From Candidatus Hecatella orcuttiae (GTDB lineage: Archaea > Thermoproteota > Bathyarchaeia > Hecatellales > Hecatellaceae), in contig MTLY02000001.1 in NCBI GenBank assembly GCA_002011035.2, positions 128,001-192,000 on the forward strand: 64,000 bases of DNA, in the 5' to 3' direction. A program made the position numbers and the translations under genes. This document shows positions 2,213 to 64,000 of this stretch, in pieces. Within the stretch, counting starts at the first letter, position 1. Every line of letters starts with the position of its first letter. The notes beneath the pieces are model-generated. The model saw only the letters and a list, made by a program, of their open reading frames with translations, made no database searches and was not told the DNA's origin.

Positions 2213-2218
2213 GGAGAA

Positions 2219-4105: not shown

Positions 4106-4180
4106 CTAGCTCGGCATAGAAGTGTTAAAAGCACTCTATCAAAAGACTTTTATATCCATATTGTAGGAATATAAGACAAG

Positions 4181-5710: not shown

Positions 5711-5737
5711 CTGTCAAATGAGGAAGCTAGTACAGGG

Positions 5738-6652
5738 ATGAGGAAGCCGCAGCGATCGAAGCCCAGAGTTACAAGCGACCAAACCTTTGCGATATACCTA
5801 CTCCTCCCCCTAATTTTTTTCACTATGGCACTGGTCATCTATCCACTGTCTTACTCGTTATGGTTATCGTTTCAAGAGCAAATTTGGATTGGAGGCTTAC
5901 GCTATGTCTTCGGCGGATTAACCCAGTATGCTAAGGCTTTGAAAGACCCCCTATTTATCAACTCGATCCCCATAACTTTTCGGTTTGTCGGCGAATCAGT
6001 CACATTAGCTGTGCTGATAGGGTTAGGCATAGCCTTAGCGTTAAATCAGCCTCTCCAAGGGAGAAAGGTAATAAGAGCTTTAATCCTCCTCCCTTGGGCC
6101 ATCTCAGAATTTGCAACAGGAATAATATGGTCTTTCGTCTACAAGAGGGATGTAGGTCTTCTAAACGCCATGCTGAAAGCTTTAGGGATCATCGAAAGCG
6201 ACATCGTGTGGATAACCCCCAAGTTTGCCATCGAAACCGTCTCCATAGCCTTCGCGTGGCATATGGCCCCCTTGGCAGCGTTCTTTTTCCTAGCAGGACT
6301 GCAGTTCATTCCCACGGACCTCTACCGTCAGGCTCGAATCGACGGAGCCGGTGTTGTCCGCCGCTTCTTAAGCGTAACACTTCCTCATTTGAAGTATTCT
6401 ATGCTGGTGATAACTATTCTCATCACGGTGATGACAGCTAGAAGCTTGGACACTATTTTGACCTTGACGGGCGGCGGGCCTGGGTTCGCATCCAGCACCT
6501 TCACCAACATCGTGTATGTGAGAACCTTTAAGGAGTTGCAGTTTGCATACGGGGCTGCTTTATCGTGGTATGTCATTCTCATCGTCGTTATCTTGGTGAT
6601 TGTGATGTTCATGTTAATGACCAAGGGATTTGCTCGTGGGGGGAGACGGTAA
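5738..6652 (+). CDS. Carbohydrate ABC permease (MalF-like)
   Basis: FFLAGLQFIPTDLYRQARIDGA EAA-like loop; multiple TM segments. Confidence 0.93.
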   Translation: MRKPQRSKPRVTSDQTFAIYLLLPLIFFTMALVIYPLSYSLWLSFQEQIWIGGLRYVFGGLTQYAKALKDPLFINSIPITFRFVGESVTLAVLIGLGIALALNQPLQGRKVIRALILLPWAISEFATGIIWSFVYKRDVGLLNAMLKALGIIESDIVWITPKFAIETVSIAFAWHMAPLAAFFFLAGLQFIPTDLYRQARIDGAGVVRRFLSVTLPHLKYSMLVITILITVMTARSLDTILTLTGGGPGFASSTFTNIVYVRTFKELQFAYGAALSWYVILIVVILVIVMFMLMTKGFARGGRR

Positions 6653-7531
6653 ATGGCAAAAGGGAACCGTGCGCTGCTTTACTTTGCCGTCATCATAATT
6701 GTACTCTGGAGTTTCATGCCCATCTACTGGATACTGAATTTGTCCCTTCAATTTGAAAGCACCATATATGCTACACCTACAAACCTAGCCCCCCTAAAGC
6801 CGACTGACTACTGGTACCGCCGCATACTCCAACTTCCTGTGGAAGAAATTGAGATGGCAGGAGCTAGCGTAGGGGCTATGACAGCGGAGCATATTGGGCG
6901 AGGTTTGAAGAACAGCATACTTGTGGCTCTCCCTGTTTCTGTCATCGCAACAGCGGTAGGTTCCCTCTCAGGGTACGCTTTTGGTAGATTGAAGTTTAAA
7001 TTTAAGAACGGCTGGCTAGTCATGTTACTAGCGTCCCAAGTACTACCTCCCGTCGCCGTGGTGCTACCGTTTTTCATCTTCTTCCTAACCCTAGGGCTTC
7101 TAGGAACTCTCCACGGTCTCATGATCATCTACCTCGGCATGTTGATACCTCTTGTAACTTGGGTTTTGCTAGGTTTTTTCGCAGGTCTTCCTCTAGAGAT
7201 CGAAAGAGCCGCCAGAATCGACGGCTGTGGAAGACTGGAAGCCTTAAGAAAAATTGTTCTCCCCATGGCCGCGCCCGGCATAGTTGCAGGGTGGGTGCTA
7301 GCTTTCATCACAGCCTATAATGAATTTATGTACGCGTGGATACTGACCACCGGCAGCTTCGCTCAGACTCTTCCCCCAGCCATAACCGGGCTGTTTTTCC
7401 AAGATACAGGGGTGCCAGAGATGAGCGCCGCTGTCATGCTATCACTGTTACCCGTGCTCGCTCTAGGCCTCGTCCTGCAAAAGTATATTATGCAGTTGAG
7501 AATAGTGGACCCCGTAACCGTCGTTGCCTAA
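6653..7531 (+). CDS. Carbohydrate ABC permease (MalG-like)
   Basis: LPLEIERAARIDGC motif; FITAYNEF. Confidence 0.93.
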   Translation: MAKGNRALLYFAVIIIVLWSFMPIYWILNLSLQFESTIYATPTNLAPLKPTDYWYRRILQLPVEEIEMAGASVGAMTAEHIGRGLKNSILVALPVSVIATAVGSLSGYAFGRLKFKFKNGWLVMLLASQVLPPVAVVLPFFIFFLTLGLLGTLHGLMIIYLGMLIPLVTWVLLGFFAGLPLEIERAARIDGCGRLEALRKIVLPMAAPGIVAGWVLAFITAYNEFMYAWILTTGSFAQTLPPAITGLFFQDTGVPEMSAAVMLSLLPVLALGLVLQKYIMQLRIVDPVTVVA

Positions 7532-7734
7532 AATACTGTTTTTTCCGCTTCAAAGCCAAGTCCCCTGTAATAAAAAATCTAAAAAGAAACATAGGCTATG
7601 CTCTAAAGTCTTAAGCTGAAACGCTCATCTCGAGAACACTAGTATCTCCAATACTCTCAAAAATTCAAAACTAATTGTAATCGTTAAATGGCTTAAAAAA
7701 CTTTGACGGTAGATGAAAAATGTTTTCTACGATT

Positions 7735-8829
7735 TTAGACGATAAGTTTCTCCGTCTTTCGGTCGTAGACGTGTATCTTGGCGATATCGATCTTAGCCCA
7801 TACCTTTTCTCCAAGAGAGGCTTTAAAGGTCGGAGGACATACACTTTTCACTATTTGTCCGCCAACCGTAAGGTCGACGATGGTTTCGGTTCCTAAGGGT
7901 TCCACAGCATAAACCTCCGTTTCAAAGGAATCATCGCCGAGCCGTTGCTTAGACACGGAAATGTTTTGCGGTCTCACGGCTAGGATGAGGTCAGAGGTAT
8001 TCCCGTGTTCTTTCACAAGGGCCGCTACATCACTGGGTAGACTTAGGGAAAACTCGGAGGTCTTCAACTTCGTCTTTTCTTTCTCTTCCATCAAGCTACA
8101 GTGGAAGAAGTTCATAGGCGGGCTGCCGATAAACCCCGCGACAAAGGTATCCGCTGGCTTGTCGAAAATTCGAATAGGCTCATCCAGCTGCGCCACTTTT
8201 CCCTTGTTCATGATGGCTATTCTATCCGCCATGGTCATGGCCTCCACTTGGTCGTGAGTTACGTAGATAGTGGTAGTCTTCAAAGTCTTCTGTAACCTGA
8301 TGAGCTCCGCCCTCATAGCAACCCTAAGCTTTGCATCGATGTTAGAAAGAGGCTCGTCTAGGAGGAAGGCCTTAGGATTTCTTACGATGGCCCTAGCCAA
8401 TGCAACCCGTTGTCTTTCACCGCCGCTCAGCTCGTAGGGCTTTCTGTCGAGCAAGGATTCTATGCCGAGCATTTGCGCTGCTTCCATAACTTGCTTCCTG
8501 ATTTTGTCGCTGGGAACCTTTCGCACCATAAGAGGGAAGGCAATGTTACGGTAGGCAGTCATGTGGGGGTAGAGGGCGTAGCTTTGGAAAACCATGGCTA
8601 CATCTCTTTTCTCCGGAGGGACCTCATCGACTTTCTCATCGTCAAAATAGACGCTCCCTTGGTCTTGCCTTTCTAAACCTGCAATGATGTTGAGTGTTGT
8701 GCTTTTTCCACAGCCTGACGGCCCTAAAAGGACAAAGAATTCTTTATCCTTAATCTCTAAACTTATATTGTTAACAGCTATAACGTTTCCGAATCTTTTA
8801 ACGACATTTTCTATTGTAATTTTGACCAT
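7735..8829 (-). CDS. Carbohydrate ABC ATPase (MalK-like, with TOBE domain)
   Basis: GPSGCGKST, MVFQSYALYPHM, LSGGERQRVALARA, LLDEPLSN, YVTHDQ. Confidence 0.96.
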   Translation of the reverse strand: MVKITIENVVKRFGNVIAVNNISLEIKDKEFFVLLGPSGCGKSTTLNIIAGLERQDQGSVYFDDEKVDEVPPEKRDVAMVFQSYALYPHMTAYRNIAFPLMVRKVPSDKIRKQVMEAAQMLGIESLLDRKPYELSGGERQRVALARAIVRNPKAFLLDEPLSNIDAKLRVAMRAELIRLQKTLKTTTIYVTHDQVEAMTMADRIAIMNKGKVAQLDEPIRIFDKPADTFVAGFIGSPPMNFFHCSLMEEKEKTKLKTSEFSLSLPSDVAALVKEHGNTSDLILAVRPQNISVSKQRLGDDSFETEVYAVEPLGTETIVDLTVGGQIVKSVCPPTFKASLGEKVWAKIDIAKIHVYDRKTEKLIV

Positions 8830-8917
8830 ATGAACTCACTCGGTTTTAGCGCTCCAAGGGCCTTCTAGCAATAAGTTCTATCGGTCTGAAATATTAGTCT
8901 TTCTTCTTCTATATAAC

Positions 8918-9397
8918 TTAAAATGCAGAGTAGGCCGAGGGATTTCTTTCCATGTACCTTTTTATATTCATCAGCCATTCTTCCGTTTTCTTTTTTATTT
9001 TCTTATTCACCCACAACCAGTCTGCTACAGTACCTAAAATCCAGCCCGGCAGGTCATATTCCAAGGTTCTGGTAAGTCTAGTTCCAACAGATATGGGTTC
9101 CAACGTCCATTTGCTTACCTTAAAATTGAAGCCTGATGTAGACTTGGTATGATAAAGTCGATTTTCCACGAGGCCTACAACTTCCGCTGTCCATAACACC
9201 CTCCTCAGTTTTCCCCTTCTAGCTGAGACGCGATATTTCGTCCCAACTCGTACCGGGCCATCGGTTAACTTTTCCACGTGGAACTCCCACTTCAACGGTA
9301 ACGGAACAAGGCTTAACATTTTCTTCTCATCCTTAACCAGCGAAAACACATCCTCCGCCAAGGCGGCAATCTCAATCGACAGTTTGACGAAGCCCAT
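8918..9397 (-). CDS. SRPBCC/polyketide cyclase-family protein
   Basis: GPVRVGTKY, WTLEP...GTRLT.TLEY.LPG pattern and C-terminal helix. Confidence 0.75.
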   Translation of the reverse strand: MGFVKLSIEIAALAEDVFSLVKDEKKMLSLVPLPLKWEFHVEKLTDGPVRVGTKYRVSARRGKLRRVLWTAEVVGLVENRLYHTKSTSGFNFKVSKWTLEPISVGTRLTRTLEYDLPGWILGTVADWLWVNKKIKKKTEEWLMNIKRYMERNPSAYSAF

Positions 9398-9537
9398 AGC
9401 TTCCTCTCTACCAAGAAGAGAGAGCCTACCATTGAAAAAAGTTCGCAGTGTACATCCCAGTGCCTTTATACAGGTGTTTGCATGCGGCTAACTCGAGACA
9501 TCCATTAGCTGAGGGGCGAGTAGTTCCGCTATGTCTT

Positions 9538-52408: not shown

Positions 52409-52978
52409 CTACAGAAGCTTTTTCAGCCGGGATAGGGCATCTTCCATAGACCCTACTTCAGGGGTTTCCGGTATGCCGATGAGGGGTATGTTCAAGTTTT
52501 TCTTTTTCATCTCATCCTCTAGAACCTCCATGTAGACGCCTTTTTCCGCCACTTGCTTCTGGCTTGGCAGCTTCTCCGGTATGAGTCCGCTCCAAGTTGG
52601 GTTTCTAGGCGTTTTGTTGACGCCGCAGCTGGGGCTTCCGTCTGCGCCTAGGATTGCCACTATCTTGTAGCCGCTTTTCTGATAGTCTTCTATCTGGTTT
52701 AAGATGAAATCAGCTAGCTTCTTGCAGTGTTCTCTGAAAGCCGGAGTGTCATATTGCTCCTTGACATACTGCCATCGACGTATTCCTAGGTAGGTGGTTT
52801 CAGGGCATGGCATTTGAAGGATACCCAGCCCGCTTTTGACCAAGAAGTCCACGACAGGCGTTATGACTCCGGGAAACTTAGCTATGCCTTGTATCTTCGC
52901 GTTCTGATTCAGAATGCAGTGCGTTGCAACAACGATTTTTTTGCTTCTCTTATCCTCCACCACGGTCACCCTATCCAA
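52409..52978 (-). CDS. TudS/DUF523-related putative desulfidase (CD3072-like)
   Basis: HCILNQN, Q.PCPE...LG..R....KEQYD, GSPSCGV, G..ME.L; three-Cys [4Fe-4S] pattern of the 2-thiouracil desulfidase family. Confidence 0.8.
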   Translation of the reverse strand: MDRVTVVEDKRSKKIVVATHCILNQNAKIQGIAKFPGVITPVVDFLVKSGLGILQMPCPETTYLGIRRWQYVKEQYDTPAFREHCKKLADFILNQIEDYQKSGYKIVAILGADGSPSCGVNKTPRNPTWSGLIPEKLPSQKQVAEKGVYMEVLEDEMKKKNLNIPLIGIPETPEVGSMEDALSRLKKLL

Positions 52979-53094
52979 ATTGACATGTGTTTCGCATTCG
53001 ACCGTATTTTAGTATTTACACAGTGAAAAATCTCAGGCTGCGAAGGGCAGCTCCGGTGAAAGTGAGTTGCAAAAAGCTTGTTGGCGATTCTTTT

Positions 53095-54501
53095 TTATTC
53101 TAGCGGGATCCCGTGGTCTACGAGTTCCTTCTTCACCTTTCGATATATAGCAAGCCATTCGGGAATAGGCTTCAAGGTCTTCAAGTCGACGCACTCCTCG
53201 AACTTTTTCCCGGCGGGAGGTTCCTTTAATTTATCTTCATATCTGGCAACTAAGGTTTTCACGATCTCGTTTGCGTCTGAGCGTTTAACCCCAGCCGAGG
53301 CTTTACCTACTTCCCCTGCAAAGCCCGCTTCAAGGCCGCTGAAATAGTGCGGATACCTCCCCATGCGAGGGCGGATGCCCATTATGCACGCAGTGCCGGA
53401 GGACGCATGCCCGATGCACTGGGCTGCCGCTTCGTAGAGAAGCATGTCGGTGCACGGCCCTGCCACCGGGTTGATGTTGAAGAGAGTGATGTTATGAGTG
53501 TTCCTACTCTGGGATTGGCATGTGAGGCTGTTGGCCCAGATGGACTCCCGGCTGCTGCCTCCGAAAAGATGCCGAAGGTCGAAGACGGCTGCGGAAGGTA
53601 TCGTCGCCTGATGCACCACGAGGATCAGAACGGCCGCAGCGTTGGCTGTTACCACGCATCCCTCCGGTGAACCGGAGTAGCCGCCGATCATAGAGTAATG
53701 GGCCGCCCCGACCGGACCGTTAAAATTGAGAGCCTGAGCTGTCTTGTTCAGCAGGGGATAGTTCGTCTTCAGGCATGAGGGGGGAAGACTCCACATGAGG
53801 TTCACCTGCGGGTCGGCAGCGTCCACAGTTCCATACGCGCCGATGGCGCCCCATCCGCTCACATCGGAGACGAGGAAAGGATAGGACATGCCGGGTCTTC
53901 CAGCCCTTCTCACCCCTTCCTTGGTCAACACGGCTTCCAGCTTCCCATAGACGGTCTCATAAGGGGTGGAGCCCTTAAGCGGCCTTCCATAGGCGGTGAC
54001 GAGAGTAGGCTGGTGGATGATGTCCACCGACCTATATTGGGCTGCAGCTTGAACGGCTAAAACGAAGAGCTCCTCGGAGCACTCGGTGTCGAAGGGACCT
54101 AGAAACGTCGTCGGAGCCTGTCCGTCTTCCGGCTTCCTCGCTTTGCATACAACCTTGTCTAAGCCGGTTCCAAGTGCTACTTGGCTTCGCGCTTCTCTCA
54201 AAGCGCTTTTGAGTTCTTCCTCGGTGAATCTAATGTTCCTTTCAGTGTCAGTGCAGAGCATGCCTACTTCGACGGCGAACTCGAAGCCGGCTTCCCAGAA
54301 CTTATCTGCCAGACTGTCGTCGGCGGGCACAGGGTTCTTGGGGTCGCAGACGCCCTCCAGCCCGTGTTCTTTAAGCTTCTCCGTCACTTTCGTCGGAATA
54401 ACTTTGGTGTCCCAGTCCTTGACCTTGCAGACGGGGCCTGTGTGAATTCTATCCAAGACTTCTAAAAAAGAAACACTCATCAACCAACTCTCCTTGCTCA
54501 T
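53095..54501 (-). CDS. mtmB: Monomethylamine:corrinoid methyltransferase (MtmB)-family protein, non-pyrrolysine
   Basis: R...GP....DWD, P.D..LAD.F..AG, G..C.DTER...FT.EE, GRP...TPYE, AGRPGM, GGY.G.PEG, AGP.T.M.L.E, P.GK.F.EC.D; no in-frame TAG. Confidence 0.88.
   Translation of the reverse strand: MSKESWLMSVSFLEVLDRIHTGPVCKVKDWDTKVIPTKVTEKLKEHGLEGVCDPKNPVPADDSLADKFWEAGFEFAVEVGMLCTDTERNIRFTEEELKSALREARSQVALGTGLDKVVCKARKPEDGQAPTTFLGPFDTECSEELFVLAVQAAAQYRSVDIIHQPTLVTAYGRPLKGSTPYETVYGKLEAVLTKEGVRRAGRPGMSYPFLVSDVSGWGAIGAYGTVDAADPQVNLMWSLPPSCLKTNYPLLNKTAQALNFNGPVGAAHYSMIGGYSGSPEGCVVTANAAAVLILVVHQATIPSAAVFDLRHLFGGSSRESIWANSLTCQSQSRNTHNITLFNINPVAGPCTDMLLYEAAAQCIGHASSGTACIMGIRPRMGRYPHYFSGLEAGFAGEVGKASAGVKRSDANEIVKTLVARYEDKLKEPPAGKKFEECVDLKTLKPIPEWLAIYRKVKKELVDHGIPLE
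54272..54311 (-). repeat. 40-bp exact inverted repeat, partner of 58427-58466
   Basis: TGGCAGATAAGTTCTGGGAAGCCGGCTTCGAGTTCGCCGT occurs in both mtmB paralogues. Confidence 0.9.
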
Positions 54502-55187
54502 TCTTTTATCATCGGCTCAGGGAGAGGCGGCTTCACCCTTTTTCCCAGAAGCTGTTTGCACACCTCCACCCCATCGTCGGCCAGTCTTCCGTATCCGTCG
54601 GCGCCGATCTCCCTCGCCCATGCGGGGGTTATGGCGCCTCCTCCAATTATAATGTAATATCTATTCCGGAGACCCATGTCTTTCAGGTAGTCTGCGACCT
54701 CCTGCTGGTAAAGCCGGGTGGTGGTCATTAGGGAGGACATGGCTATGATGTCTGCTTTGACTTTTTCAGCTTCCTCCACGAACTTCATAGACGGCACATC
54801 TGAGCCGAGGTCGTGGACTTCGAATCCGGCTGCCGAAAGCATCACAGCCACGATGTTTTTGCCGATATCGTGAATGTCCCCCTTCACCGTTCCTATGACA
54901 ACTTTTCCCGCTATGGCTTCACTTCTCCTTTCAGCCGTCAACTTGAAAAGAAGCACTTCCACACCAGCCTTGGTGGCGTCTGCCGCCAGCATCACTTGAG
55001 GCAGAAATATTTCACAGTCATGAAACTTCTGGCCGACCACAGCCATACCTTTTCCAAGCCCTTCTTTGATGGCTTTCAGAGGGTCTATACCCGTCTTCAC
55101 AGCTTCTTCAGCCGTGCTCTTCGCTGCCTCCTCATCCATTTCAATAACGGACCTAGCCAGCCTCTCCAAAATGTCAACTTCAGACAA
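54498..55187 (-). CDS. Methyltransferase corrinoid protein (MtmC/MttC-like)
   Basis: Cap domain GM..VG..F....FLP....AA; GTVKGDIHDIGKNIV, SSLMTTT, GGG. Confidence 0.95.
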   Translation of the reverse strand: MSEVDILERLARSVIEMDEEAAKSTAEEAVKTGIDPLKAIKEGLGKGMAVVGQKFHDCEIFLPQVMLAADATKAGVEVLLFKLTAERRSEAIAGKVVIGTVKGDIHDIGKNIVAVMLSAAGFEVHDLGSDVPSMKFVEEAEKVKADIIAMSSLMTTTRLYQQEVADYLKDMGLRNRYYIIIGGGAITPAWAREIGADGYGRLADDGVEVCKQLLGKRVKPPLPEPMIKE

Positions 55188-55329
55188 TTCAGACGTAACC
55201 TCTGTCTACGACTAGAGTCATCCGAAGACCAGCGAATTTAAGCGTTTCGGTTACTCGCGTTGGAAAAGCCTGAAGAGATGAGAAGGTTCTGCTGTGGCGA
55301 ACGCAGAGCAGTTCATCGGATGACAGTCT

Positions 55330-56106
55330 CTAGCCGAGCCCTAATAATTTGTGAATGTCTAAGATATATTCGGAAAATTTTTTCTCTTCCCTATGCTCCA
55401 ATCTTCTCGGCCGGGGTAGATCAATGACTATCTCTTTAGCTATTTTGCCTGGGCGGGGAGTCATAACCAGCACCCTGTCCGCCAGAAATACAGCTTCTTC
55501 AACATTATGGGTTATGAACAGTATTGTCTTTTTTGTTTCATGCCATATCCTCAAAAGTTCAAAGTTCATCTCATACCTTGTCAGCGCGTCCAGCGCACCA
55601 AAAGGCTCATCCATGAGCAACAGTAAGGGGTCATGTATCAGCGCCATACAGATGGAAACTCTCTGCTGCATTCCACCGGATAGTTCATGAGGGTATTTGT
55701 TCTCAAACCCTGATAGGCCGACCAGTTTGACCAGTTCAGGGATCTTTTCGTAATACTTCTTCCCCAGCTTGAGTACTTCGAGCGGTAGCATTATATTTTT
55801 GATAACAGTTCTCCAAGGGAAGAGGACGGGAAACTGGAAAACGATGCCTATGTTCGGCTGAGGTCCTTTCAGCAGTTTACCGGCTATACGGATTTCCCCG
55901 CTGGTTTCCGGTATTAAACCTGAGATAACATTGAGAAGCGTGGATTTTCCACATCCGCTCCTCCCGACGATGCAGATGAATTCTCCCTTCTTAACACTGA
56001 ATGAAACGTCTTCTAAGGCCAGAACGTCCCCTCTTGGAGATTGGTAGACTTTTGTTAGATTTTTTACTTCAATCAGTTCTTCGGCTGAATTACCGGTTTT
56101 CATCAC
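55330..56106 (-). CDS. ABC ATPase, TauB/SsuB family
   Basis: GRSGCGKST, LFPWRTV, YP.ELSGGMQQRV, LMDEPFGALDA.TR, ITH...EAV.LADR. Confidence 0.95.
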   Translation of the reverse strand: MMKTGNSAEELIEVKNLTKVYQSPRGDVLALEDVSFSVKKGEFICIVGRSGCGKSTLLNVISGLIPETSGEIRIAGKLLKGPQPNIGIVFQFPVLFPWRTVIKNIMLPLEVLKLGKKYYEKIPELVKLVGLSGFENKYPHELSGGMQQRVSICMALIHDPLLLLMDEPFGALDALTRYEMNFELLRIWHETKKTILFITHNVEEAVFLADRVLVMTPRPGKIAKEIVIDLPRPRRLEHREEKKFSEYILDIHKLLGLG

Positions 56107-56876
56107 TCACGAATTCTCCATGGAATCAGCAATTTTTCCAGCAACACTATAGACCCGTAGAGTGTAAGCGCCAAAATGCATAACACCAATAAAGACGCAA
56201 AGGCGAAGGGGACGTTTAATGAGAAGTTGGAAACAAGCACGAGATAGCCAACTCCGGAGCTGGACGCTATGAATTCTCCTACCACAACTCCTACAACTGA
56301 TAAAGTGATAGATACTTTAAATCCGTCAAACAGGTAAGGGAGGGCGTTCTTGAATCTTAATTTTCTGAGTATCTGCCATTCGGAAGCACGGAAAGAGCGC
56401 ATCAGCTTCAACATGTTGGGGTCGATCTTTGTTAAGCCACTTATGGAGGCGATGACTATAGGGAAAAAGGCGAGGAAGAAGGAAACTAGCAATATGGACG
56501 GACTCCCATACCCAACCCAGATGACAAAAAAGGGAGCGATAGCCACCACAGGCAGCGACCGTATGGCGACCATCAACGGATACAGGGTAACCCTCAGAAT
56601 CCATGAATAGGCAATTCCCACCCCAAGGACAAAGCCGAAGACTACAGCTAAAAGGAAGCCTTCCACAATTAAAAGAAACGTAAAGTACGTATTTCTCAAG
56701 AGCGTATCAAGATTATTCACAAGCTCGCTTGCTATGGCTGAAGGGGGTGGAAGAAAAAAACTAGGTATATTGAATATTTCTACCGCCATCTGCCACACTA
56801 TAACCAGCATAAACATGAAAACTGTGAAGATTACTGGCTCTCTTATTCTCATCTTCGCACCCGATCCTGCCGGCAT
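56103..56876 (-). CDS. ABC permease, TauC/SsuC family
   Basis: LPPPS, P.VA.AP....W.G.G, FFPI, ALPY.F.G.K, VVGEF. Confidence 0.93.
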   Translation of the reverse strand: MPAGSGAKMRIREPVIFTVFMFMLVIVWQMAVEIFNIPSFFLPPPSAIASELVNNLDTLLRNTYFTFLLIVEGFLLAVVFGFVLGVGIAYSWILRVTLYPLMVAIRSLPVVAIAPFFVIWVGYGSPSILLVSFFLAFFPIVIASISGLTKIDPNMLKLMRSFRASEWQILRKLRFKNALPYLFDGFKVSITLSVVGVVVGEFIASSSGVGYLVLVSNFSLNVPFAFASLLVLCILALTLYGSIVLLEKLLIPWRIRE

Positions 56877-56961
56877 ATCATATGTTTTTCGCTTCTTATC
56901 TAGCTCCCGCTACCCCGTAGGCTGTCAAACGGCTCATATTTGATGAGAGTGTAGCCGGCTG

Positions 56962-58053
56962 TTACATTACCTCCGCTATTATCGCATTGATGTTTTCTTC
57001 GGCATTTTCCGGTGGGAGTATTTTCGTCAAGTATTCGTTCGTGTAAATCCTTTCTAGGGGAACTTCTTCGAAGCCAAAAGCCTCCGACGCTATTTTTTGC
57101 GTAAAAGCCATTTTCTCTTCGGTTACCCAGCCCAGCCCCAATTTCGCAGTCTCTTCCGGGTTTCCTAAATACCCTTGCAGCCCAAACGCCAACTGAATTC
57201 TGATGTCTTCCCGTTTAAGCTCCGGGCGGTATTTGTGCATAGCGTCAACTGCTTCTTCAGGGTTGGCCATGGCGTCTCTGATGCCCATGAATGTGGCCTT
57301 TAAAAATCTCCGGATCAGCTCCGGGTTTTCCGCCATAAGATCCAAGTGTGCTACGATGGCATTATTGTACACGTCTAAACCCCAATCCGCGAAGTTGATG
57401 TGGTTGACTTTTTCCCATAGAGCTGCACTAGGAGACTCGCTGTAGAAGCCGCATATGTCGGTTTCTCCTGCAAGCAACGCTGAGACCGCTACCCCTGGAT
57501 CAAGGTTTCGCATCTCTACGGTCGCGGGGTCAACACCGTTGATCTCTAAGAAGTAGGGCAGAAGTAGCGAGGTTTCGCTTGCAAAAGTCTGCCCATATAT
57601 CTTCCCCACCATGTCCTGCGGCCCTTTTATTCCGCTGTCCTTTCTGACGATGACACCGTTTACGCTTCTGAGGTGCAGCATCGCCACTATCTTCAGCTGC
57701 GCACCTTCGGCTATGGCTTTTATGGTTCCGCTGGTGCCCGGCATGCCGAAATCAAATTTCTTGGCTTCCATGTTTTTTAAAACGTCGGAGGTTCCATATC
57801 CCCTAAATATCCTCAGGGACAGCCCTTCTTCTTCATAGTATCCCTTTTCCATGGCTAAGAAGAAGGGGGCATCCCTTCCGACGAAGGCCCATCCCGTTTG
57901 AAAAGTGACAATGGCGATTTCGGGTGCTGGTGTAGGTGGTGGAGCTCTTGCAGTTCCGGCGAGATATCCCCCAACCATGCCTACCGCAAAGCCTACTACG
58001 GTGCCTACGGCGGTTTTAAGCCATCCTCTTCGAGTAACTTTCTCATCTACCAA
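56962..58053 (-). CDS. NMT1/THI5/ThiY-like ABC solute-binding protein with twin-Arg leader
   Basis: TRRGWLK leader, TM, PPPTPAP linker; W......APF..A..KGYY.EEGL, FL.A...G...A..NPEEA. Confidence 0.85.
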   Translation of the reverse strand: MVDEKVTRRGWLKTAVGTVVGFAVGMVGGYLAGTARAPPPTPAPEIAIVTFQTGWAFVGRDAPFFLAMEKGYYEEEGLSLRIFRGYGTSDVLKNMEAKKFDFGMPGTSGTIKAIAEGAQLKIVAMLHLRSVNGVIVRKDSGIKGPQDMVGKIYGQTFASETSLLLPYFLEINGVDPATVEMRNLDPGVAVSALLAGETDICGFYSESPSAALWEKVNHINFADWGLDVYNNAIVAHLDLMAENPELIRRFLKATFMGIRDAMANPEEAVDAMHKYRPELKREDIRIQLAFGLQGYLGNPEETAKLGLGWVTEEKMAFTQKIASEAFGFEEVPLERIYTNEYLTKILPPENAEENINAIIAEVM

Positions 58054-58260
58054 AATTCTTACCTCTCTCCTACCTTAGCATCTAAGCCCTATTTAAACCT
58101 ACTGAGCTTGTTGAAAATCCCTTCTTCGCCCCGCTTACAAGCTTGAGCAAGTTTCGCAACTAAAGCCCAACGGATCCTTGGCTTCTTGTGTCTTAAGACT
58201 GCGAAAGATTTATCTGTAGATCGACAAGAGTAAACGTCTAACAATTGTCGGTGGTTTCGT

Positions 58261-59634
58261 GTGGTAAGTTTTCTTGAAGTCTTAGACAGAGCTCACAGCG
58301 GCCCCGTGTGCGAAGTAGGTGAATGGGATAAGAGAGTGATACCAGGGAAGATCATGGAGAAGCTTAAGGAACACGGGCTATCGCGAACATGCAGCCCTGA
58401 AAACCCTGTCAACACGGATGATGGTTTGGCAGATAAGTTCTGGGAAGCCGGCTTCGAGTTCGCCGTGGAGACGGGAATGCTCTGCATCAACACAGAGAGA
58501 GTCATAAAGTTCAGTGAAGAAGAAGTCAAAGAAGCCCTGCGGCTGGCTCCCAAAGAAATCACGGTAGGGGAGAGCAGCGACAAGGTGGTGATAAGAGCCC
58601 GAAGGCCAGAGGACCCTAGGCCGCCGGTTTTCAGGTCGGGGTTTGGAATAGTCTCCGAGGAGCTTTTCATGCCCATAATGCAGGGCATCGCTGAAAACAG
58701 GGTTATAGACATGTTGTCCGCGCTTTCCACATCCACAACCCACGGTCGACCTGTCATAGCAGGCTCACCCTACGAGTCCCTCGCAGGCCTCAACGAGGGA
58801 GCTGCTGTGAAGGAAGTGGCGAGGCGGGTAGGCCGGCCGGGCATCCCTTTCATAGGCCCAGCCCTCAGCCCCACAGAATACGGTCTGCTGGGCGGATATG
58901 GAGCACCTCACAGCTACACGCGGAACGACATGGGGCTGGTCCTCGCCATCACGGAGTTGAAAACCTCCTACGGCTTACTGCATAAGGTTGTCAAGGTTCA
59001 AAGCTATGGAGGCTATGTTTACGGAAACCACTGGTCCATGATAGGCGGCTACGTAGGCCCGCCTGAGGGAGCGGCTGTGGCGGCTGTGGCCGCTACGCTG
59101 CTTCAAGTCCTAGTGCACAGGTGCGCTGTTCCCTGCGGGGTGATTTACGATTTCAGGTATGACGGCAACGTAGGCCGGGAAGCCGTGTGGGCTGCCAGCG
59201 TGGTGGAGCAGGGGGAAAGCCGAAACACCCAGCTCTTGATAGGGGGAATAACCAGCCAGGTTTCAGGCCCGTGCACGGAGGAAATCCTCTACGAAATGGC
59301 CGTGGGAGCCATCGAACAGGCTGTGTCCGGGTGCGCAGCCAACATAGGAAACCGCTCCGCGGGAGGAAAACACAAAGACCACGTAAGCCCGCTGGAGCAG
59401 AAGTTCGGCGCAGAGGTTGTCAAGGCATGTGCGGGGATGAAACGCTCAGACGCCAATGAGGCTGTGAAGGCCCTTCTGCCGAAATATGAAAGCAAGCTGA
59501 GAAATCCTCCGCTGGGTAAAACCTTCCCGGAATGCTACGATGTGAAAACCCTCAAACCCAAGGACGATTGGCTCAGCATCTACAAAAAAGTGAAAAGAGA
59601 ACTGGTGGACCTAGGCGTACCTTTAGACGTTTAA
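58261..59634 (+). CDS. mtmB: MtmB-family methyltransferase, non-pyrrolysine, second paralogue
   Basis: GRPVIAGSPYE, GRPGIPFIGP, ELK, GGY.GPPEG, SGP.TE..LYE, P.GKTF.ECYD; no in-frame TAG. Confidence 0.9.
   Translation: MVSFLEVLDRAHSGPVCEVGEWDKRVIPGKIMEKLKEHGLSRTCSPENPVNTDDGLADKFWEAGFEFAVETGMLCINTERVIKFSEEEVKEALRLAPKEITVGESSDKVVIRARRPEDPRPPVFRSGFGIVSEELFMPIMQGIAENRVIDMLSALSTSTTHGRPVIAGSPYESLAGLNEGAAVKEVARRVGRPGIPFIGPALSPTEYGLLGGYGAPHSYTRNDMGLVLAITELKTSYGLLHKVVKVQSYGGYVYGNHWSMIGGYVGPPEGAAVAAVAATLLQVLVHRCAVPCGVIYDFRYDGNVGREAVWAASVVEQGESRNTQLLIGGITSQVSGPCTEEILYEMAVGAIEQAVSGCAANIGNRSAGGKHKDHVSPLEQKFGAEVVKACAGMKRSDANEAVKALLPKYESKLRNPPLGKTFPECYDVKTLKPKDDWLSIYKKVKRELVDLGVPLDV
58427..58466 (+). repeat. 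40-bp exact inverted repeat, partner of 54272-54311
   Basis: Direct comparison; contains the 12-bp palindrome GAAGCCGGCTTC. Confidence 0.9.
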
Positions 59635-59698
59635 ACATCCTGAAACCGGATCTCCGACAAATCCGGTGAAAATTTAAATACCAGAATCCCTAAACAGA

Positions 59699-60844
59699 AT
59701 GCGTTTAAAGGAGGATTTTGATCTCATGGCAACCCAAACATCCAGAAGAAGTGCTCTTAAATACGGTGTTGCTGCGGTTGTGGCTGTGGTGGTGGCTGGT
59801 GTGGGCGGTTACGCCGCCTGGCAGGCTACAAGGCCGGCTCCAGCCCCCACACCGACGCCTGCACCGACGCCTACGCCGACGCCCACACCCACGCCAACAC
59901 CGGCACCTACCCCCACACCAACACCGACACCGACACCCACACCCGCGCCTACTCCAATAAAAGTTGCAATGTCCTTGGATGCGGGAGCCGATATACCGGG
60001 ATGGAGCCATTCAGGATATCTCGCTTTGAAACATGTGGAAGAGAAGTTTGGAGCGGAGATTTCGTATTCTGAATTCATACCTTTCGCTGACGCTGAACGG
60101 GATTTGAAACAGTTTGCCGCCGCGGGATTCGACCTAGTTTGGGGCCACGGAGGCCAGTATGACGACGCGGCGGCTAGGGCGGCTGAGGAGTTTCCGGACA
60201 CCTATTTTATGACCACTGGCTGCCGGACGTCTGCCCCTAATCTCCGAGCCTATGATCCAAAGTGGCATGAAATGACATACTTAGGCGGATTGTTGGCGGG
60301 TTTGATGACGAAAACCGGCAAGATAGGTGTGGTCAACGGAGGGGAGTTCCCGGTTATAAAAATGCTCACCAACGGCTTCATCTTGGGAGTGGAGGCGGCT
60401 AACCCTCAAGCGGAAGTGATAGTCTCCTACGTGGGGTCTTTCATCGAGCCGGTTAAGGGAAAAGACTTCGCTACCTCTCAGATAAACGCTGGAAGCGACA
60501 TCATCGCCTCCTGGGCCGGTTTCTCCTCCACTGGAATCTTCGAAGCCGCGCGCGAACGGGAAGGAATTTACGTGGTATCAGAGCATCAAGACTACTTTGA
60601 AATGGGTAAAGACGTGTCCATCGCCACCTACGTCTTCAACTTCATTCCGCTGCTCGAGGAAACTGTTCAAAGCATCCTAGAAAACAACTTTCAAGGAGGC
60701 ACGTTTACGCCTGGAATAAAAGAGGGAGTTCTTGACCTTCGCATAAACACAGAGCTGGTTCCCTCGGACATAGCAGAGACCGTGATGAAGGCGAGGCAGG
60801 ATATCATCGACGGTGTGCTCGTGGTACCGGAAATATGGGATTAA
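59699..60844 (+). CDS. BMP/Med-family (nucleoside-type) ABC solute-binding protein
   Basis: GW...G, GHG.Q, A.EFPD..F, YL.G.LAG.MTKTGKIG.V.G, GSF..P.KG; SRRSALKY leader and PT linker; likely start ATG 59726. Confidence 0.9.
   Translation: MRLKEDFDLMATQTSRRSALKYGVAAVVAVVVAGVGGYAAWQATRPAPAPTPTPAPTPTPTPTPTPTPAPTPTPTPTPTPTPAPTPIKVAMSLDAGADIPGWSHSGYLALKHVEEKFGAEISYSEFIPFADAERDLKQFAAAGFDLVWGHGGQYDDAAARAAEEFPDTYFMTTGCRTSAPNLRAYDPKWHEMTYLGGLLAGLMTKTGKIGVVNGGEFPVIKMLTNGFILGVEAANPQAEVIVSYVGSFIEPVKGKDFATSQINAGSDIIASWAGFSSTGIFEAAREREGIYVVSEHQDYFEMGKDVSIATYVFNFIPLLEETVQSILENNFQGGTFTPGIKEGVLDLRINTELVPSDIAETVMKARQDIIDGVLVVPEIWD
59788..59904 (+). repeat. 117-bp exact direct repeat, copy 2 (copy 1 at 4264-4380)
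   Basis: Base-by-base identity over TM end, WQATR and the first half of the PT linker. Confidence 0.92.
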
Positions 60845-60930
60845 CGTCGGAAGGAACTAAACACCTAGAAAACGGAAGCAGAGGCCGTAGGTGCTAACCT
60901 ACCTACCTTTTTTTATAAAGGGCTCTTGGA

Positions 60931-61854
60931 TTATCTTGCTCTCTTGTATGGAACGGTTAGAGCTTTTGGGAATTCGGCTTTTCTGCCTATGGCGACCATC
61001 ATCGATATTGTCAGAAGATACGGCAGCATGGACAAGAATTGATACGGCACCATCACTCCCAATGCTTGAATGTGTATTTGAAGGGCTTCAGCCCCCCCGA
61101 AGATGAGCGCCCCTAAAATTGCGCGGGCAGGATTCCACTTGCTGAAGACCACGATTGCTATGGCTATGAACCCTCGACCTGCCACCATGTTGTGGGTGAA
61201 CAGCCCCACATGGGCGATGCTCAGGTAGCAGCCTCCTAAGCCGGCCATGGCTGCGCTTACAAGGATGGTGATAGACCTAACCCAGTTTACGTTAATAGCT
61301 GCATTTTCCGCAGCCAACGGGTTTTCTCCCACCGCTCGGATGTTTAAGCCGAATGTTGTTTTGAACAAAATTAACCAGAAAAGGGCGACAGCTAATATTG
61401 AAGCGTACACCAGAAAGTTCTGCTGAAACAGGACAGGGCCTATGAAAGGCAGCTTACTGAGGTATGGCACTGGAATTGCCTCCAACGTCTTTATGGTGGG
61501 GAATTGAGGTAAACCTGCAACATACCATTTCAGCAGGAAAGTGGAGGCTCCCAGTCCCAGAAGCCAAATTCCAACCCCGTTGATCACCTGGTCAACGTGT
61601 AGCAGGATGACGATGACGAGGGTTGCTAAGCCGAAAAGTAGCCCGCCTGCAAGGGCTGCTCCTAAGCCGATGTAGGGGCTGCCTGTGATGTGTGTTGCTA
61701 TGAGGCCTAGGGAGGCGCCCATCAGCATTATTCCCTCTATCCCCAAATTGAGCACACCGGATCGTTGGGACAAAGTCTCTCCAAGGGCGGGCAGTAGAAT
61801 GGGAACCATCATGTGAACGGCGGTGGCGAGGACGAACACTATAAACTCTGACAT
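60931..61854 (-). CDS. Nucleoside/simple-sugar ABC permease (NupC-like)
   Basis: ALGE..SQRSGVLNLGIEG.ML.GA, RAVGENP.AA, GRGFIA.A.V.F..W.P, MLPY. Confidence 0.92.
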   Translation of the reverse strand: MSEFIVFVLATAVHMMVPILLPALGETLSQRSGVLNLGIEGIMLMGASLGLIATHITGSPYIGLGAALAGGLLFGLATLVIVILLHVDQVINGVGIWLLGLGASTFLLKWYVAGLPQFPTIKTLEAIPVPYLSKLPFIGPVLFQQNFLVYASILAVALFWLILFKTTFGLNIRAVGENPLAAENAAINVNWVRSITILVSAAMAGLGGCYLSIAHVGLFTHNMVAGRGFIAIAIVVFSKWNPARAILGALIFGGAEALQIHIQALGVMVPYQFLSMLPYLLTISMMVAIGRKAEFPKALTVPYKRAR

Positions 61855-61870
61855 TCTCGCATACCTCCCT

Positions 61871-62884
61871 TTAGAACAATTTCATCTTCTCCATCATCGA
61901 GTCGATGCCCAGCATGAAAATCAGAATGAAAGCTTGGAGGACGTACATGAAAGCGCCAGGTATGACGGTCATGGAGGTCATGGCGGAGCTGCCGACTATC
62001 AGTCCTCCGAAGAAAATGCCTGTGAGAACCACTGCGATGGGATGCAGCCTGCCGAGCAGGGCGACGATGATGGCGAAATATCCGTAGCCGGGGGAGATGT
62101 TGTTAACCAGCCGGTAATGGACACCGGACACTTCTCCCATTCCCGCCATCCCTGCCAAGCCTCCGCTGAGGATCACAGCATATATGGTGTATCTGGTGAC
62201 GTTTATCCCGCCGTATCTGGCAGCTAGAGGATTGGAGCCGGTAGACCTTATTCTGTACCCGAAGATCGTTTTCTGCAGAACCAAGTACACGAGTATGGAG
62301 AGGGCAACCGCCACGATGAAGCCTGCATGCAACCTTGTTCCCGGGATCAATTTCGGTAACTGTGCAGCTGGTAGGATGGGAGGTGTACGGGGGAAAAGGG
62401 CGCCCTCCTCTTTTAACAAGTCTTCCACCAGAAAGCTCACAAACAGAAGTGCTATGAAGTTCATCATCAAGGTGGTGATTATCTCATTCACCTGCAGTTT
62501 AGCCTTCAAGTATCCGGGGATCACTCCCCACATTGCACCCGCCATGAAGCTGGCAGAAAATAGCAGGGGAAGCATAAGGCTGAAAGGTGCTTTAACACTC
62601 ATTCCAAGCCAAGCGGCGATGGCGGCTCCTAGGAGCAGTTGACCCTCCGCCCCAATGTTCCAAAATTTACATCTGAAGGCTACAATTATCCCTAAGGCTG
62701 CTAAGATGAGAGGTGTAGCCACGGTTAAGGTTTCAGCCACCCCGTAAAGAGAACCGAAGGCGTTGGAAAAAAAGACCCCATATGCCATCATGGGGTCTAC
62801 TCCCATGGCTGCGATGAGAAAAGCGGAGGCTGCGAACGCTAAACCTATTTCCGCCACGATGGCGAGGATCTTTCTTCCTTTCAT
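61871..62884 (-). CDS. Nucleoside/simple-sugar ABC permease (NupB-like)
   Basis: ATPLI, AFR...WNIGAEGQ, NEIITTLM.N, G.N..AARY.GI, GYG..AI.VALLG..HP. Confidence 0.92.
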   Translation of the reverse strand: MKGRKILAIVAEIGLAFAASAFLIAAMGVDPMMAYGVFFSNAFGSLYGVAETLTVATPLILAALGIIVAFRCKFWNIGAEGQLLLGAAIAAWLGMSVKAPFSLMLPLLFSASFMAGAMWGVIPGYLKAKLQVNEIITTLMMNFIALLFVSFLVEDLLKEEGALFPRTPPILPAAQLPKLIPGTRLHAGFIVAVALSILVYLVLQKTIFGYRIRSTGSNPLAARYGGINVTRYTIYAVILSGGLAGMAGMGEVSGVHYRLVNNISPGYGYFAIIVALLGRLHPIAVVLTGIFFGGLIVGSSAMTSMTVIPGAFMYVLQAFILIFMLGIDSMMEKMKLF

Positions 62885-63159
62885 CTAACTCATCATCAAC
62901 GGTTTTACCTTTTCTAACTTTATTATAGGGAATTTAAGGTTTTCCAAAAAAAATCGGCAGACATATTCAGCCGTCTTCAACTCCCATGGAGAAACTATAA
63001 AAAACCAGCTCTACCTGTCTGGGTTTCGGAAAGGCTTAAATCACTCTAACAGCAAGAGGCTTTCAACACCATGTCTACAATCGGTTGCCTTCAACAATTT
63101 GAAGGAGCAAAGCCGAAGGCGAACACCATCCATTAACCAGCGGGATAGGGGGAGTTACC

Positions 63160-63822
63160 GTGAAGTCAAAAAGGCATCAAAAATCAGGTGAAGTACTGGG
63201 GAAGGTCAACAGCTGCATAGTCAACTTCGACGTGGAAGGCCTCCGGCAGGCCTGCCGGGAAGCCTTAGACGAAGGCATCCCTCCTGCTGAAATTTTTAGG
63301 GAAATGGCGAGGGGCATGGAGGTCATCGGCCGGAATTACGAACGTGGAGAATACTACCTTTCTGAGCTGATCGCAGCAGGGGAGACCATGAAGGAGGGAA
63401 TGCGGATAGTGGAGCCGCATCTTAAAACTGCCGATTACAAAGCAGCGGGCAAGGTGCTCATAGGAACGGTTAAGGGAGACCTTCATGACATAGGAAAAGA
63501 CATAGTCATAGCGCTTCTGAAGTCCGCAGGCTTTGAGGTCGTCGACCTAGGCATAGACGTGCCTTCGGAGAAGTTCGTGGAGGAGGTTCGCAGGGTTAAA
63601 CCCGACATCCTCGGACTGTCCGGCTTACTGACGCCTTCCATGATGGAAATGGAAAACGTCATCCGAAGGCTTACTCAGGAAGGCCTCAGGGAAAAAGTCA
63701 AGGTCATCCTCGGCGGCTATCCCATCAAAGAAGATTTCGCCCGGAAGGTGGGAGCCGACGCCGGCGTGAACGACGTGGCTTTAGGCGTGAAAATCTGCAA
63801 AGAGTGGATTAAATCCAAATAG
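63160..63822 (+). CDS. Methyltransferase corrinoid protein
   Basis: GM..IG..YE.GEY.L.EL..AG; GTVKGDLHDIGKDIV, DLG.DVP, SGLLT. Confidence 0.95.
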   Translation: MKSKRHQKSGEVLGKVNSCIVNFDVEGLRQACREALDEGIPPAEIFREMARGMEVIGRNYERGEYYLSELIAAGETMKEGMRIVEPHLKTADYKAAGKVLIGTVKGDLHDIGKDIVIALLKSAGFEVVDLGIDVPSEKFVEEVRRVKPDILGLSGLLTPSMMEMENVIRRLTQEGLREKVKVILGGYPIKEDFARKVGADAGVNDVALGVKICKEWIKSK

Positions 63823-63830
63823 CCTTGCCT

Positions 63831-64000
63831 TTAACGGTATTTCCCATATTCTTCGGCTGCCTGAATCAGCGCGTCTAGGTTCTCCGGAGGGGTGTTGGCT
63901 GTGACCTCGCAGGAAGAACTCAGGATGAAGCGCCCCCCGGGGGATGTCTCCAAGACGCAGGCCTTTGCCATCTGAAAGACTTCCTCCTTTGGGCTGAAGG
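63831..64000 (-). CDS. C-terminus of a uroporphyrinogen decarboxylase/MtaA-MtbA (MT2) family protein (5' part outside the window)
   Basis: ...AKACVLETSPGGRFILSSSCEVTANTPPENLDALIQAAEEYGKYR* matches GG.FILS.GC.....TP.EN..A. Confidence 0.85.
   Translation of the reverse strand, partial: FSPKEEVFQMAKACVLETSPGGRFILSSSCEVTANTPPENLDALIQAAEEYGKYR

Follow-up and report, generated by a model that had tools for sequence, protein, structure and literature searches.

Pyrrolysine-free MtmB homologues and BMP-type importers: two gene modules in Candidatus Hecatella orcuttiae, a link across phyla, and N-methylated heterocycles as candidate substrates

The window considered here, a stretch of 64,000 nucleotides from the archaeon Candidatus Hecatella orcuttiae (GenBank assembly GCA_002011035.2, contig MTLY02000001.1, positions 128,001 to 192,000), holds near its end (52,409 to 64,000) two genes for homologues of the methyltransferase MtmB, designated MtmB1 and MtmB2, together with two corrinoid proteins and components of two ABC importers. 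To judge by its genes, this region is two of the genome's many methyl-harvest modules built on MtmB homologues free of pyrrolysine (Pyl), each beside its own importer. An initial annotation had proposed that the modules demethylate, and in one case prepare for desulfidation, modified nucleosides or nucleobases. Every gene that it named is present as a full open frame, the UroD/MtaA gene alone being cut by the window end, and Pfam and NCBIfam scans together with sequence motifs bear out its view that both MtmBs lack Pyl and belong to three-part corrinoid modules.

The first module lies on the minus strand, where corrinoid protein 1 (54498-55187; B12-binding and B12-binding_2 domains; TIGR02370 217.1 versus a cut-off of 215.3) overlaps by 4 bases the gene of MtmB1 (53095-54501; PF05369 264.4 bits), a predicted methyltransferase of the MT1 type. 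At 116 bp downstream of MtmB1 and on the same strand is a TudS-related gene of the CD3072 family (52409-52978), whose product is a putative [4Fe-4S] desulfidase; it scores 184.7 bits with NF045597 (cut-off 130), but 21.7 with Pfam 2-thiour_desulf, under the cut-off of 34.7. A UbiE-type methyltransferase and an MFS transporter come next on that strand. Ahead of corrinoid protein 1, likewise on the minus strand, are the ATPase (55330-56106; PF00005) and permease (56103-56876; PF00528) of a NitT/TauT-type importer and an NMT1/THI5-like substrate-binding protein (56962-58053; PF09084 138.6 bits). The top NCBIfam names are SaoA, taurine and nitrate ATPases for the ATPase and SaoP and TauC for the permease, all under cut-off.

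In the second module, MtmB2 (58261-59634, plus strand; PF05369 288.5 bits), also of the MT1 type, is divergent from the minus-strand run of NMT1 and MtmB1 genes, and a BMP-family substrate-binding lipoprotein (59699-60844, plus strand; PF02608 174.9 bits) starts 64 bp past it. Two CUT2-type ABC permeases with BPD_transp_2 domains follow on the minus strand, at 60931-61854 in a NupC-like position (PF02653 126.8 bits) and at 61871-62884 in a NupB-like position (PF02653 151.8 bits). No ATPase gene for this BMP system was found within the window; five two-domain ATPases of the kind lie elsewhere in the genome, beside other BMP systems. The NCBIfam models for a 'putative B6 ABC transporter' (NF047927-9) score well under their cut-offs, at 109 versus 400, 214 versus 465 and 222 versus 400. 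Corrinoid protein 2 (63160-63822, plus strand) has the same two B12-binding domains, with a TIGR02370 score of 188.6, under the cut-off of 215.3, and the DxHxxG motif is present in both corrinoid proteins, as GDIHDIG in protein 1 and GDLHDIG in protein 2. Lastly, the C-terminal end of a MtaA/CmuA-like methyltransferase of the MT2 type occupies 63831-64000 on the minus strand, the rest of the gene extending beyond the window to 64883; the whole gene (350 aa; L001:831-1883) scores 250 bits with PF01208 and 202.6 with TIGR01463 (MtaA/CmuA), under the cut-off of 235.4, and it is therefore kept in the class of UroD-family, MtaA-like proteins. Past it (65289-70286 in window numbering) come a flavin reductase, a chlorohydrolase-type amidohydrolase (NF005552 335.5 bits versus a cut-off of 294), a RibD_C gene and two radical-SAM genes of the CofG/CofH type.

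Both MtmBs span positions 3-449 of the 450 in the PF05369 profile (cut-off 25 bits), and MtmB2 matches the MtmB of Methanosarcina barkeri (PDB 1l2q) over residues 7-453 with 200 bits and E = 3.6e-58. Neither MtmB1 nor MtmB2 contains an in-frame stop, so that the pyrrolysine characteristic of MtmB proper is missing; the corresponding position (X in 1l2q, TAG in the genome's own mtmB) is occupied by Pro in the first and by Ile in the second. A phmmer search of the genome's own frames revealed 11 uninterrupted MtmB paralogs besides a TAG-containing copy, of which seven (clade A) share 46-72% identity with the pair in the window and four (clade B) share 31-34% with MtmB1. In trees, MtmB1 is the most divergent clade-A paralog, and it shares 29% identity with the TAG-containing copy. 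Across the 11 paralogs the residue at the Pyl position reads P, I, W, I, Q, G, Q, V, I, L and F, a copy-to-copy variation that fits a predicted divergence of substrate pockets.

Judging from its gene content, the host itself makes and uses pyrrolysine. Its genome (1.75 Mb in three contigs, 97% complete, and marked as archaeal by CGI-121, HerA/NurA and TackOD1 domains and SepRS) carries at locus L009 (C1:346001-366000) a tRNA-Pyl with a CUA anticodon (3861-3931), followed by four genes in the order pylS-pylB-pylC-pylD (3970-7949). Only the last bears a PylD-specific domain (PylD_N); the three before it carry class II tRNA-synthetase, radical-SAM and ATP-grasp domains, and are named pylS, pylB and pylC by gene order and domain type rather than by family match. 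Adjoining these is an mtmB (8085-9476) that reads G-M-G-L-TAG-G-P-E, and frames of mtbB and mttB that are apparently split by TAG occur near it and in loci L006 and L008. Since the host has a complete Pyl system, the loss of Pyl from the other MtmB copies means a changed function. No match to MCR was found in this 97% complete genome, nor any to FTHFS or MtaB, and it does encode two MtrH homologues, CODH/ACS subunits including CdhD/E, Mch and an activase of the RACo/RamA type. From this gene content, methyl groups most likely enter tetrahydromethanopterin and the Wood-Ljungdahl pathway rather than methane.

Within the host genome, Pfam annotation of ~20 kb around each MtmB paralog revealed that, of five clade-A loci, three have one of the six BMP genes ≤8 kb away (P = 0.0018 for random placement); four of those six genes are near a clade-A MtmB and two are not. 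Eight of the ten paralogous TRZ/ATZ/SsnA-type amidohydrolases are found ≤9 kb from a clade-A MtmB or a BMP gene. They score best, though always under cut-off, as N-ethylammeline chlorohydrolase, 5'-deoxyadenosine deaminase, SsnA, 8-oxoguanine deaminase and guanine deaminase, and among solved structures they come closest to MTA/SAH deaminase and atrazine chlorohydrolase. At the end of contig 1, tandem MtmBs adjoin PreA and a carbamate kinase (both over cut-off), a YgfK/GltD-like protein, two carbamoyltransferases and two more amidohydrolases. The PALP genes beside tandem MtmBs were considered as diaminopropionate ammonia-lyase, an identity that was rejected because they pass the models for threonine synthase and cysteine synthase, and they were not counted. 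The clade-B copies adjoin SBP_bac_8-type ABC importers, a class-III aminotransferase and AOR. With clade A near BMP systems and clade B near SBP_bac_8, different MtmB paralogs are thus paired with different importers, and the SBP_bac_8 pairing hints at amine-like substrates for clade B. At the clade-B loci L006 (C3:394001-414000) and L007 (C3:594001-614000), the importers have TOBE-domain ATPases, and a tungsten-type AOR and a ferredoxin are encoded alongside.

The genome also has eight Mo subunits of the xanthine-dehydrogenase (Xdh) type, and an Xdh-type set with FeS and FAD subunits stands at the window start (2-3851). Contigs 1 and 2 start inside Xdh-type genes of near-identical length (C1:74-1426 and C2:95-1447), which points to a repeat at which the assembly broke.

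Two samples of other genomes were analyzed, which may share genomes and are not additive. Sample 1 took one genome per species and was seeded with patterns from seven clade-A proteins, giving 79 loci whose frames were tagged by phmmer with the Pfam-verified proteins of this genome as queries. A FastTree phylogeny of 99 MtmBs (88 external frames of ≥380 aa, shorter frames being dropped, and the 11 of the host) placed 57 external genes from 48 loci of 26 genomes in clade A and 29 loci in clade B. Features were counted ≤8 kb from MtmB, and the counts are lower bounds owing to many short contigs; one metagenome-assembled genome (MAG) supplies many loci, and related genomes are not independent. A BMP system is present in 25/48 clade-A loci (16/26 genomes) and 6/29 clade-B loci, a TRZ/ATZ-type amidohydrolase in 15/48 and 3/29, an Xdh Mo subunit in 9/48 and 3/29, and any of these three in 36/48 and 8/29. 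The corresponding counts are 31/48 and 22/29 for a corrinoid protein, 8/48 and 1/29 for UroD, and 2/48 and 0/29 for a TudS-related gene. Xdh FAD and FeS subunits also occur in MtmB loci of other genomes, and an adenine deaminase adjoins the BMP gene in one Bathyarchaeia locus.

The 16 BMP-linked clade-A genomes bear eight phylum labels (Hadarchaeota, Bathyarchaeota, Nitrososphaerota, Thermoproteota, Chloroflexota, Bacillota, Spirochaetota and Thermodesulfobacteriota), and the link appears in at least five gene orders. For example, with Cor for corrinoid protein and perm for permease, the Caldarchaeales-type order is RamA-Cor-MtmB-MtaB-perm-perm-ATPase-BMP, that of a spirochaete BMP-ATPase-perm-perm-RamA-MtmB-Cor-DUF1638-Xdh and that of Leptolinea Cor-MtmB-BMP-ATPase-perm-perm-amidohydrolase; in a Hadarchaeota-labelled MAG, three MtmBs precede perm-perm-BMP. 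In the Leptolinea and Bacillota loci, MtmB and BMP genes are directly adjacent on the same strand. A full-length MtaB homologue lies between the MtmB and BMP-transporter genes, with RamA upstream, at L037, L039, L040, L043, L044, L055, L058 and L143-L147 (PF12176 552.8 bits for the homologue at L039), so that two MT1 types share one corrinoid protein and importer in loci of the Caldarchaeales type. Two single cases involve enzymes of nucleic-acid base damage: an HhH-GPD base-excision glycosylase in a spirochaete MtmB-BMP-Xdh locus (L054:18022-18669) and an endonuclease V gene directly after a gene of the MtmB1 subclade in a Hadarchaeota-labelled MAG (L059:2592-3269).

Sample 2, which was not seeded with clade A, came from a search with PF05369 of 201 genomes of the window's phylum, 28 of which, the host's included, have the family; it comprises all 31 loci of the other 27 genomes with ~8.5 kb on each side. 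A BMP system was detected in 20/31 loci and 20/27 genomes, but these represent just 3/6 families, and it is absent from the single TAG-type locus of the sample. A TRZ/ATZ amidohydrolase or Xdh was found in 0/31 of these loci within ~8.5 kb. AOR recurs beside Cor-MtmB-MtmB-BMP clusters (L122-L135, and L003:17787-19730 in the host) and lies ≤8 kb from MtmB in 26/131 external rows. In a joint tree, both large clades carry the BMP link (36/63 and 34/68 external rows), and one subclade is without it (0/22). An interpretation of the link as peculiar to clade A (25/48 versus 6/29, Fisher P = 0.008) was dropped accordingly, sample 1 being clade-A-seeded. The BMP link is thus a property of several Pyl-free MtmB lineages, whereas the link to enzymes of N-heterocycle metabolism is lineage-dependent.

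In terms of the initial annotation, which had suggested a survey for enrichment of BMP and THI5 transporters and DUF523 genes around Pyl-free MtmBs, the pairing with BMP importers is conserved far outside this genome, the links to TudS/DUF523 and THI5/NMT1 genes are not, and no MtmB match (E ≤ 1e-20) was found in the three other genomes of the host's family. Its statement that no pathway of the proposed kind is known also finds support, as no publication was found that ties MtmB to BMP transporters or purines, subscription-only papers lying outside the search. The link of MtmB to BMP transporters is real, cross-phylum and, as far as the literature search reached, unpublished. It is hardly probable that the neighborhood is coincidental or regulatory, with BMP proteins, amidohydrolases and Xdh serving ordinary base salvage or catabolism. 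All six BMPs of the host are of the base type and two of them stand apart from clade-A MtmBs, as such a coincidence would have it, but the link recurs across many phyla and gene orders, extends to direct same-strand adjacency in Leptolinea and Bacillota and departs from random placement in the host itself (P = 0.0018).

The nature of the imported substrate was approached through the BMP-family binding protein. By sequence, the window's BMP matches the guanosine-bound Lbp 7x0r, the adenine-bound 3s99, AtzT 6pi5 and BmpA 9q1u with E from 1e-31 to 1e-24; a suspicion that 7x0r is a sugar binder was rejected, the structure being guanosine-bound. An AlphaFold2 model of the protein (pLDDT 90.1) has AtzT 6pi5 as its top Foldseek match, with nucleoside binders (TM ~0.8-0.86 on target) and the riboflavin-binding RfuA close behind. 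The fold search fails to tell binders of bases and of nucleosides apart, since E is ~1e-24 for AtzT as well as for guanosine-bound Lbp, PnrA and BmpD. The ligands named among the solved BMP-family matches (guanine, hydroxyatrazine, nucleosides and riboflavin) are all N-heterocycles.

Published contact residues, which alone make that separation, were mapped onto the sequences by pairwise HMMER and MAFFT alignments. In AtzT, guanine is sandwiched by Tyr45 and Trp194 (PMC6834077), and in BmpA, Phe27 and Phe176 hold the base while Asp98, Asp225 and Lys242 hold the ribose (PMC13325309). The window's BMP keeps the aromatic sandwich as Trp102 and Phe248, but by alignment the three ribose-binding residues correspond to Thr173, His296 and Phe313, unlike those of the nucleoside subgroup; Thr at the first of these positions is also found in AtzT and 3s99, and Lbp has Asp, Asp and Lys. 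Alignment of 34 BMPs, six from the host and 28 MtmB-linked from other genomes, revealed Trp at position 102 in 33/34 and an aromatic residue at position 248 in 34/34, with Asp at position 173 in 0/34, Asp at position 296 in 2/34 and Lys at position 313 in 1/34; the equivalent of AtzT Ser97 is Ser in 22/34. On these alignments the pocket of the linked BMPs appears suited to a planar, base-like ligand without ribose, bases being more likely than nucleosides. The nucleoside ligand favored by the initial annotation fits poorly with the linked BMPs, which are without the ribose-binding Asp/Asp/Lys and resemble the base-binding type of AtzT and 3s99.

The TudS-related gene and the NMT1-type importer present a different picture. 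The TudS-related protein keeps three Cys, in the motifs HC, PCPE and SCG, which we take to be cluster-binding. Its family occurs in 55/201 genomes of the phylum at E ≤ 0.001, with 23 over cut-off. Besides the host, 54 genomes have a match, and in the best 29 of them 0/29 TudS-related loci have an MtmB or corrinoid protein ≤1.5 kb away. The other cases of TudS beside MtmB are just two closely related Bathyarchaeia loci (L023 and L025), in which the gene is convergent with an MtmB of a different subclade. No TudS-related match stands by the three nearest relatives of MtmB1, all of which have a corrinoid protein. Similarly, no NMT1 importer was found in the two annotated MtmB1 relatives, and an NMT1 match occurs in 0/79 loci of sample 1. 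Matches of the NMT1 protein in PDB are weak and mixed, 4nmy (1.3e-15) being followed by THI5, TauA and ThiY, with THI5 and ThiY comparable to TauA. The NMT1 link is accordingly treated as local to this genome, and the TudS-related gene probably stands outside the methyl-harvest module, its link likewise seeming local.

These results leave very little room for the proposal of the initial annotation in its full form, namely that methylated or methylthio nucleosides are imported, that MtmB1 removes an S-methyl group and that the TudS-related enzyme then removes the sulfur. The same-strand position of the gene 116 bp behind MtmB1, the three Cys with the CPE motif, and the occurrence of such a gene beside a clade-A MtmB at L023 and L025 are what would be expected of it. 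The linkage, however, is seen in 0/29 of the best other TudS-related loci and in just 2/48 clade-A loci, both close kin, and is missing from two annotated relatives (of three) in the MtmB1 subclade; the linked BMPs lack the ribose-binding residues; and we know of no MtmB-family enzyme that acts on S-methyl groups. S-demethylation thus finds no support. Desulfidation finds none beyond this genome, and the same goes for the importance attached to the THI5/NMT1 importer, which recurs neither in the 79 loci nor beside the two annotated MtmB1 relatives.

The explanation that we favor is that BMP-linked MtmBs act on N-methylated planar N-heterocycles, with methylated purine-type bases as first candidates ahead of nucleosides, a reading that we put at about 0.5. 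That nucleobase-type compounds in particular are the substrates is a narrower claim, which we hold tentatively and somewhat below an even chance. A methylated substrate would be imported by the BMP-type system for MtmB2 and perhaps by the NMT1-type system for MtmB1, and the MtmB homologue would transfer its methyl group to the corrinoid protein in the Co(I) state. From there the MtaA-like MT2, MtrH or both would pass the methyl group to tetrahydromethanopterin and thus into the Wood-Ljungdahl pathway, and a RamA-like enzyme would re-reduce oxidized corrinoid. The demethylated ring would be broken down by TRZ/ATZ-type amidohydrolases, Xdh-type enzymes and a carbamate-kinase route. Gene identities, the absence of Pyl, the recurrence of the neighborhoods and the residue pattern of the binding proteins are established by the analysis, whereas the substrate class, the methyl acceptor and the pairing of importer with enzyme are presumptive. 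Extended beyond this genome, the same explanation would describe a widespread anaerobic pathway of archaea and bacteria for methyl harvest from methylated nucleobases, either left over from modified RNA and DNA or in the form of methylxanthines, by a radiation of base-tuned Pyl-free MtmBs with base-type BMP importers and fermentative ring breakdown; we regard this extension as possible, though on balance the odds are against it. In the host and in several bacterial and archaeal lineages, the pairing of MtmB with BMP importers has enzymes acting on N-heterocycles nearby, namely TRZ/ATZ/SsnA-type amidohydrolases, Xdh-type enzymes and adenine deaminase, whereas in sample 2 the count for a TRZ/ATZ amidohydrolase or Xdh is 0/31.

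Several observations weigh against N-methylated heterocycles as the substrates. N-heterocycle enzymes are missing from all sample-2 loci, where AOR is frequent instead, and the amidohydrolases and MT2 of the host score under NCBIfam cut-offs. MtmB-family matches (E ≤ 1e-20) number 12 in the host and occur in 0/3 other genomes of its family, so that the host seems to have acquired or enlarged its full set recently. The pocket assignments come from alignments rather than from ligand-bound structures, and the window's own BMP is an outlier in its pocket residues. The commonest linked type, represented by 17 sample-2 BMPs and the host BMP at C1:365969, has the common signature E98, W102, N103, S151, W152, G173, W248, E276, I/V/Y296 and W313, a predicted Trp-rich, acidic pocket that could hold a cationic amine; the host BMP at C1:12274 is also of this type. 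Furthermore, the sole characterized Pyl-free MtmB, MtqB, uses tetramethylammonium and choline (PMC13044021), and loci of the Caldarchaeales type carry an MtaB homologue.

Some of these points lend weight to an alternative in which the substrates are quaternary or simple methylamines, either through MtqB-like action or through action on methylamine freed from N-methylamino heterocycles by TRZ/ATZ-type amidohydrolases, with BMPs re-used for the purpose. MtqB as the one Pyl-free MtmB with a shown function (PMC13044021), the four Trp (102, 152, 248 and 313) and two Glu in the commonest pocket, and the 0/31 count all agree with it. Yet no solved BMP-family match has an amine ligand, and the equivalent of AtzT Ser97/Phe98 is kept (Ser in 22/34). 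In addition, 11 diverged paralogs with varied residues at the Pyl position are a misfit for one or two small substrates, and Pyl-dependent enzymes for mono-, di- and trimethylamine are already encoded by the host, mtbB and mttB being read from the apparently TAG-split frames. We therefore consider amine substrates unlikely, if credible. Less credible again are other methylated planar compounds, such as flavins, pterins, pyridinium or triazine-like compounds and O-methylated heterocycles. The BMP-family RfuA binds riboflavin, and AtzT binds hydroxyatrazine (PMC6834077); the MtaB homologue stands beside MtmB in Caldarchaeales-type loci, and flavin reductase, RibD_C and CofG/H genes lie just beyond the window. 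However, the adenine deaminase and the guanine-deaminase/SsnA-like and XdhA-like top names point to purines, and nothing specific favors any single compound of this group.

Uncultured archaea and bacteria contain many Pyl-free MtmB homologues, which databases label 'monomethylamine methyltransferase'. In the tree of the MtqB report the other members are given as 'of unknown function', and its authors state that their roles 'have remained elusive' (PMC13044021). When 'Ca. Formimonas warabiya' was grown on dichloromethane, its most induced protein was a Pyl-free member of the MtmB superfamily, to which no role was assigned (PMC9768040). Solved members of the BMP transporter family all bind N-heterocycles, and the conserved pairing of MtmB with this family provides a concrete and cheaply testable substrate class. 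If N-methylated bases are indeed the substrates, they would constitute a source of methyl groups and energy for subsurface acetogen-like archaea, and automated calls of methylamine use would be wrong in many genomes. A candidate enzyme would also be at hand for the anaerobic fate of methylxanthine pollutants. A 2026 preprint describes 13C-methane from the N-methyl groups of caffeine in anoxic sediment with enrichment of Bathyarchaeia and Anaerolineae, and names no enzyme (10.64898/2026.01.06.697959); the missing enzyme of that N-demethylation would then have been named.

Among the closest known systems is MtqB/MtqC/MtqA, which transfers methyl groups from tetramethylammonium and choline to CoM. 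MtqB of Methanococcoides methylutens, published in 2026, was the first Pyl-free MtmB with a function, and its system similarly combines a Pyl-free MtmB homologue, a cognate corrinoid protein and an MT2 of the MtaA/MtbA type, the loss of Pyl going with a new substrate (PMC13044021). Its host, however, is a methanogen, whereas the present genome is without an MCR match, and the accessible part of that report describes no BMP importer or N-heterocycle enzymes (PMC13044021). The Pyl-dependent monomethylamine system MtmB/MtmC/MtbA of M. barkeri (1l2q/1nth) shares the full-length family match and the three-part logic, but has Pyl where Ile or Pro stands here, and its transporter context differs. The non-Pyl MttB-family enzymes (MtgB for glycine betaine and others) offer a parallel, described in the MtqB report, in that Pyl-free paralogs of methylamine methyltransferases took larger methylated substrates (PMC13044021); they belong to a different MT1 superfamily, MttB rather than MtmB, and their substrates are quaternary amines. 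The thiouracil and 4-thiouridine desulfidases TudS and RudS resemble the TudS-related protein in that it passes the CD3072 NCBIfam model and keeps the three Cys, but the gene here is under the Pfam TudS-family cut-off and has no conserved link to MtmB.

On the side of import, PnrA, BmpD, BmpA and Lbp with the NupABC-type transporters share fold, family and aromatic sandwich with the BMPs described here, although their ribose-binding residues are nearly absent across the 34 linked or host BMPs. AtzT of Pseudomonas sp. ADP, in contrast, is a BMP-family binder of planar N-heterocycles, with a reported Kd of 0.11 uM for guanine and 2.2 uM for hydroxyatrazine (PMC6834077). In the Atz/Trz pathway, such a binder is likewise paired with TRZ/ATZ-family amidohydrolases, which there remove N-alkyl groups (PMC6834077). 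The H-bonding residues of the two binders differ, and the alkyl group leaves by hydrolysis in that pathway, whereas for the modules of Candidatus Hecatella orcuttiae we propose its removal by a corrinoid methyltransferase.

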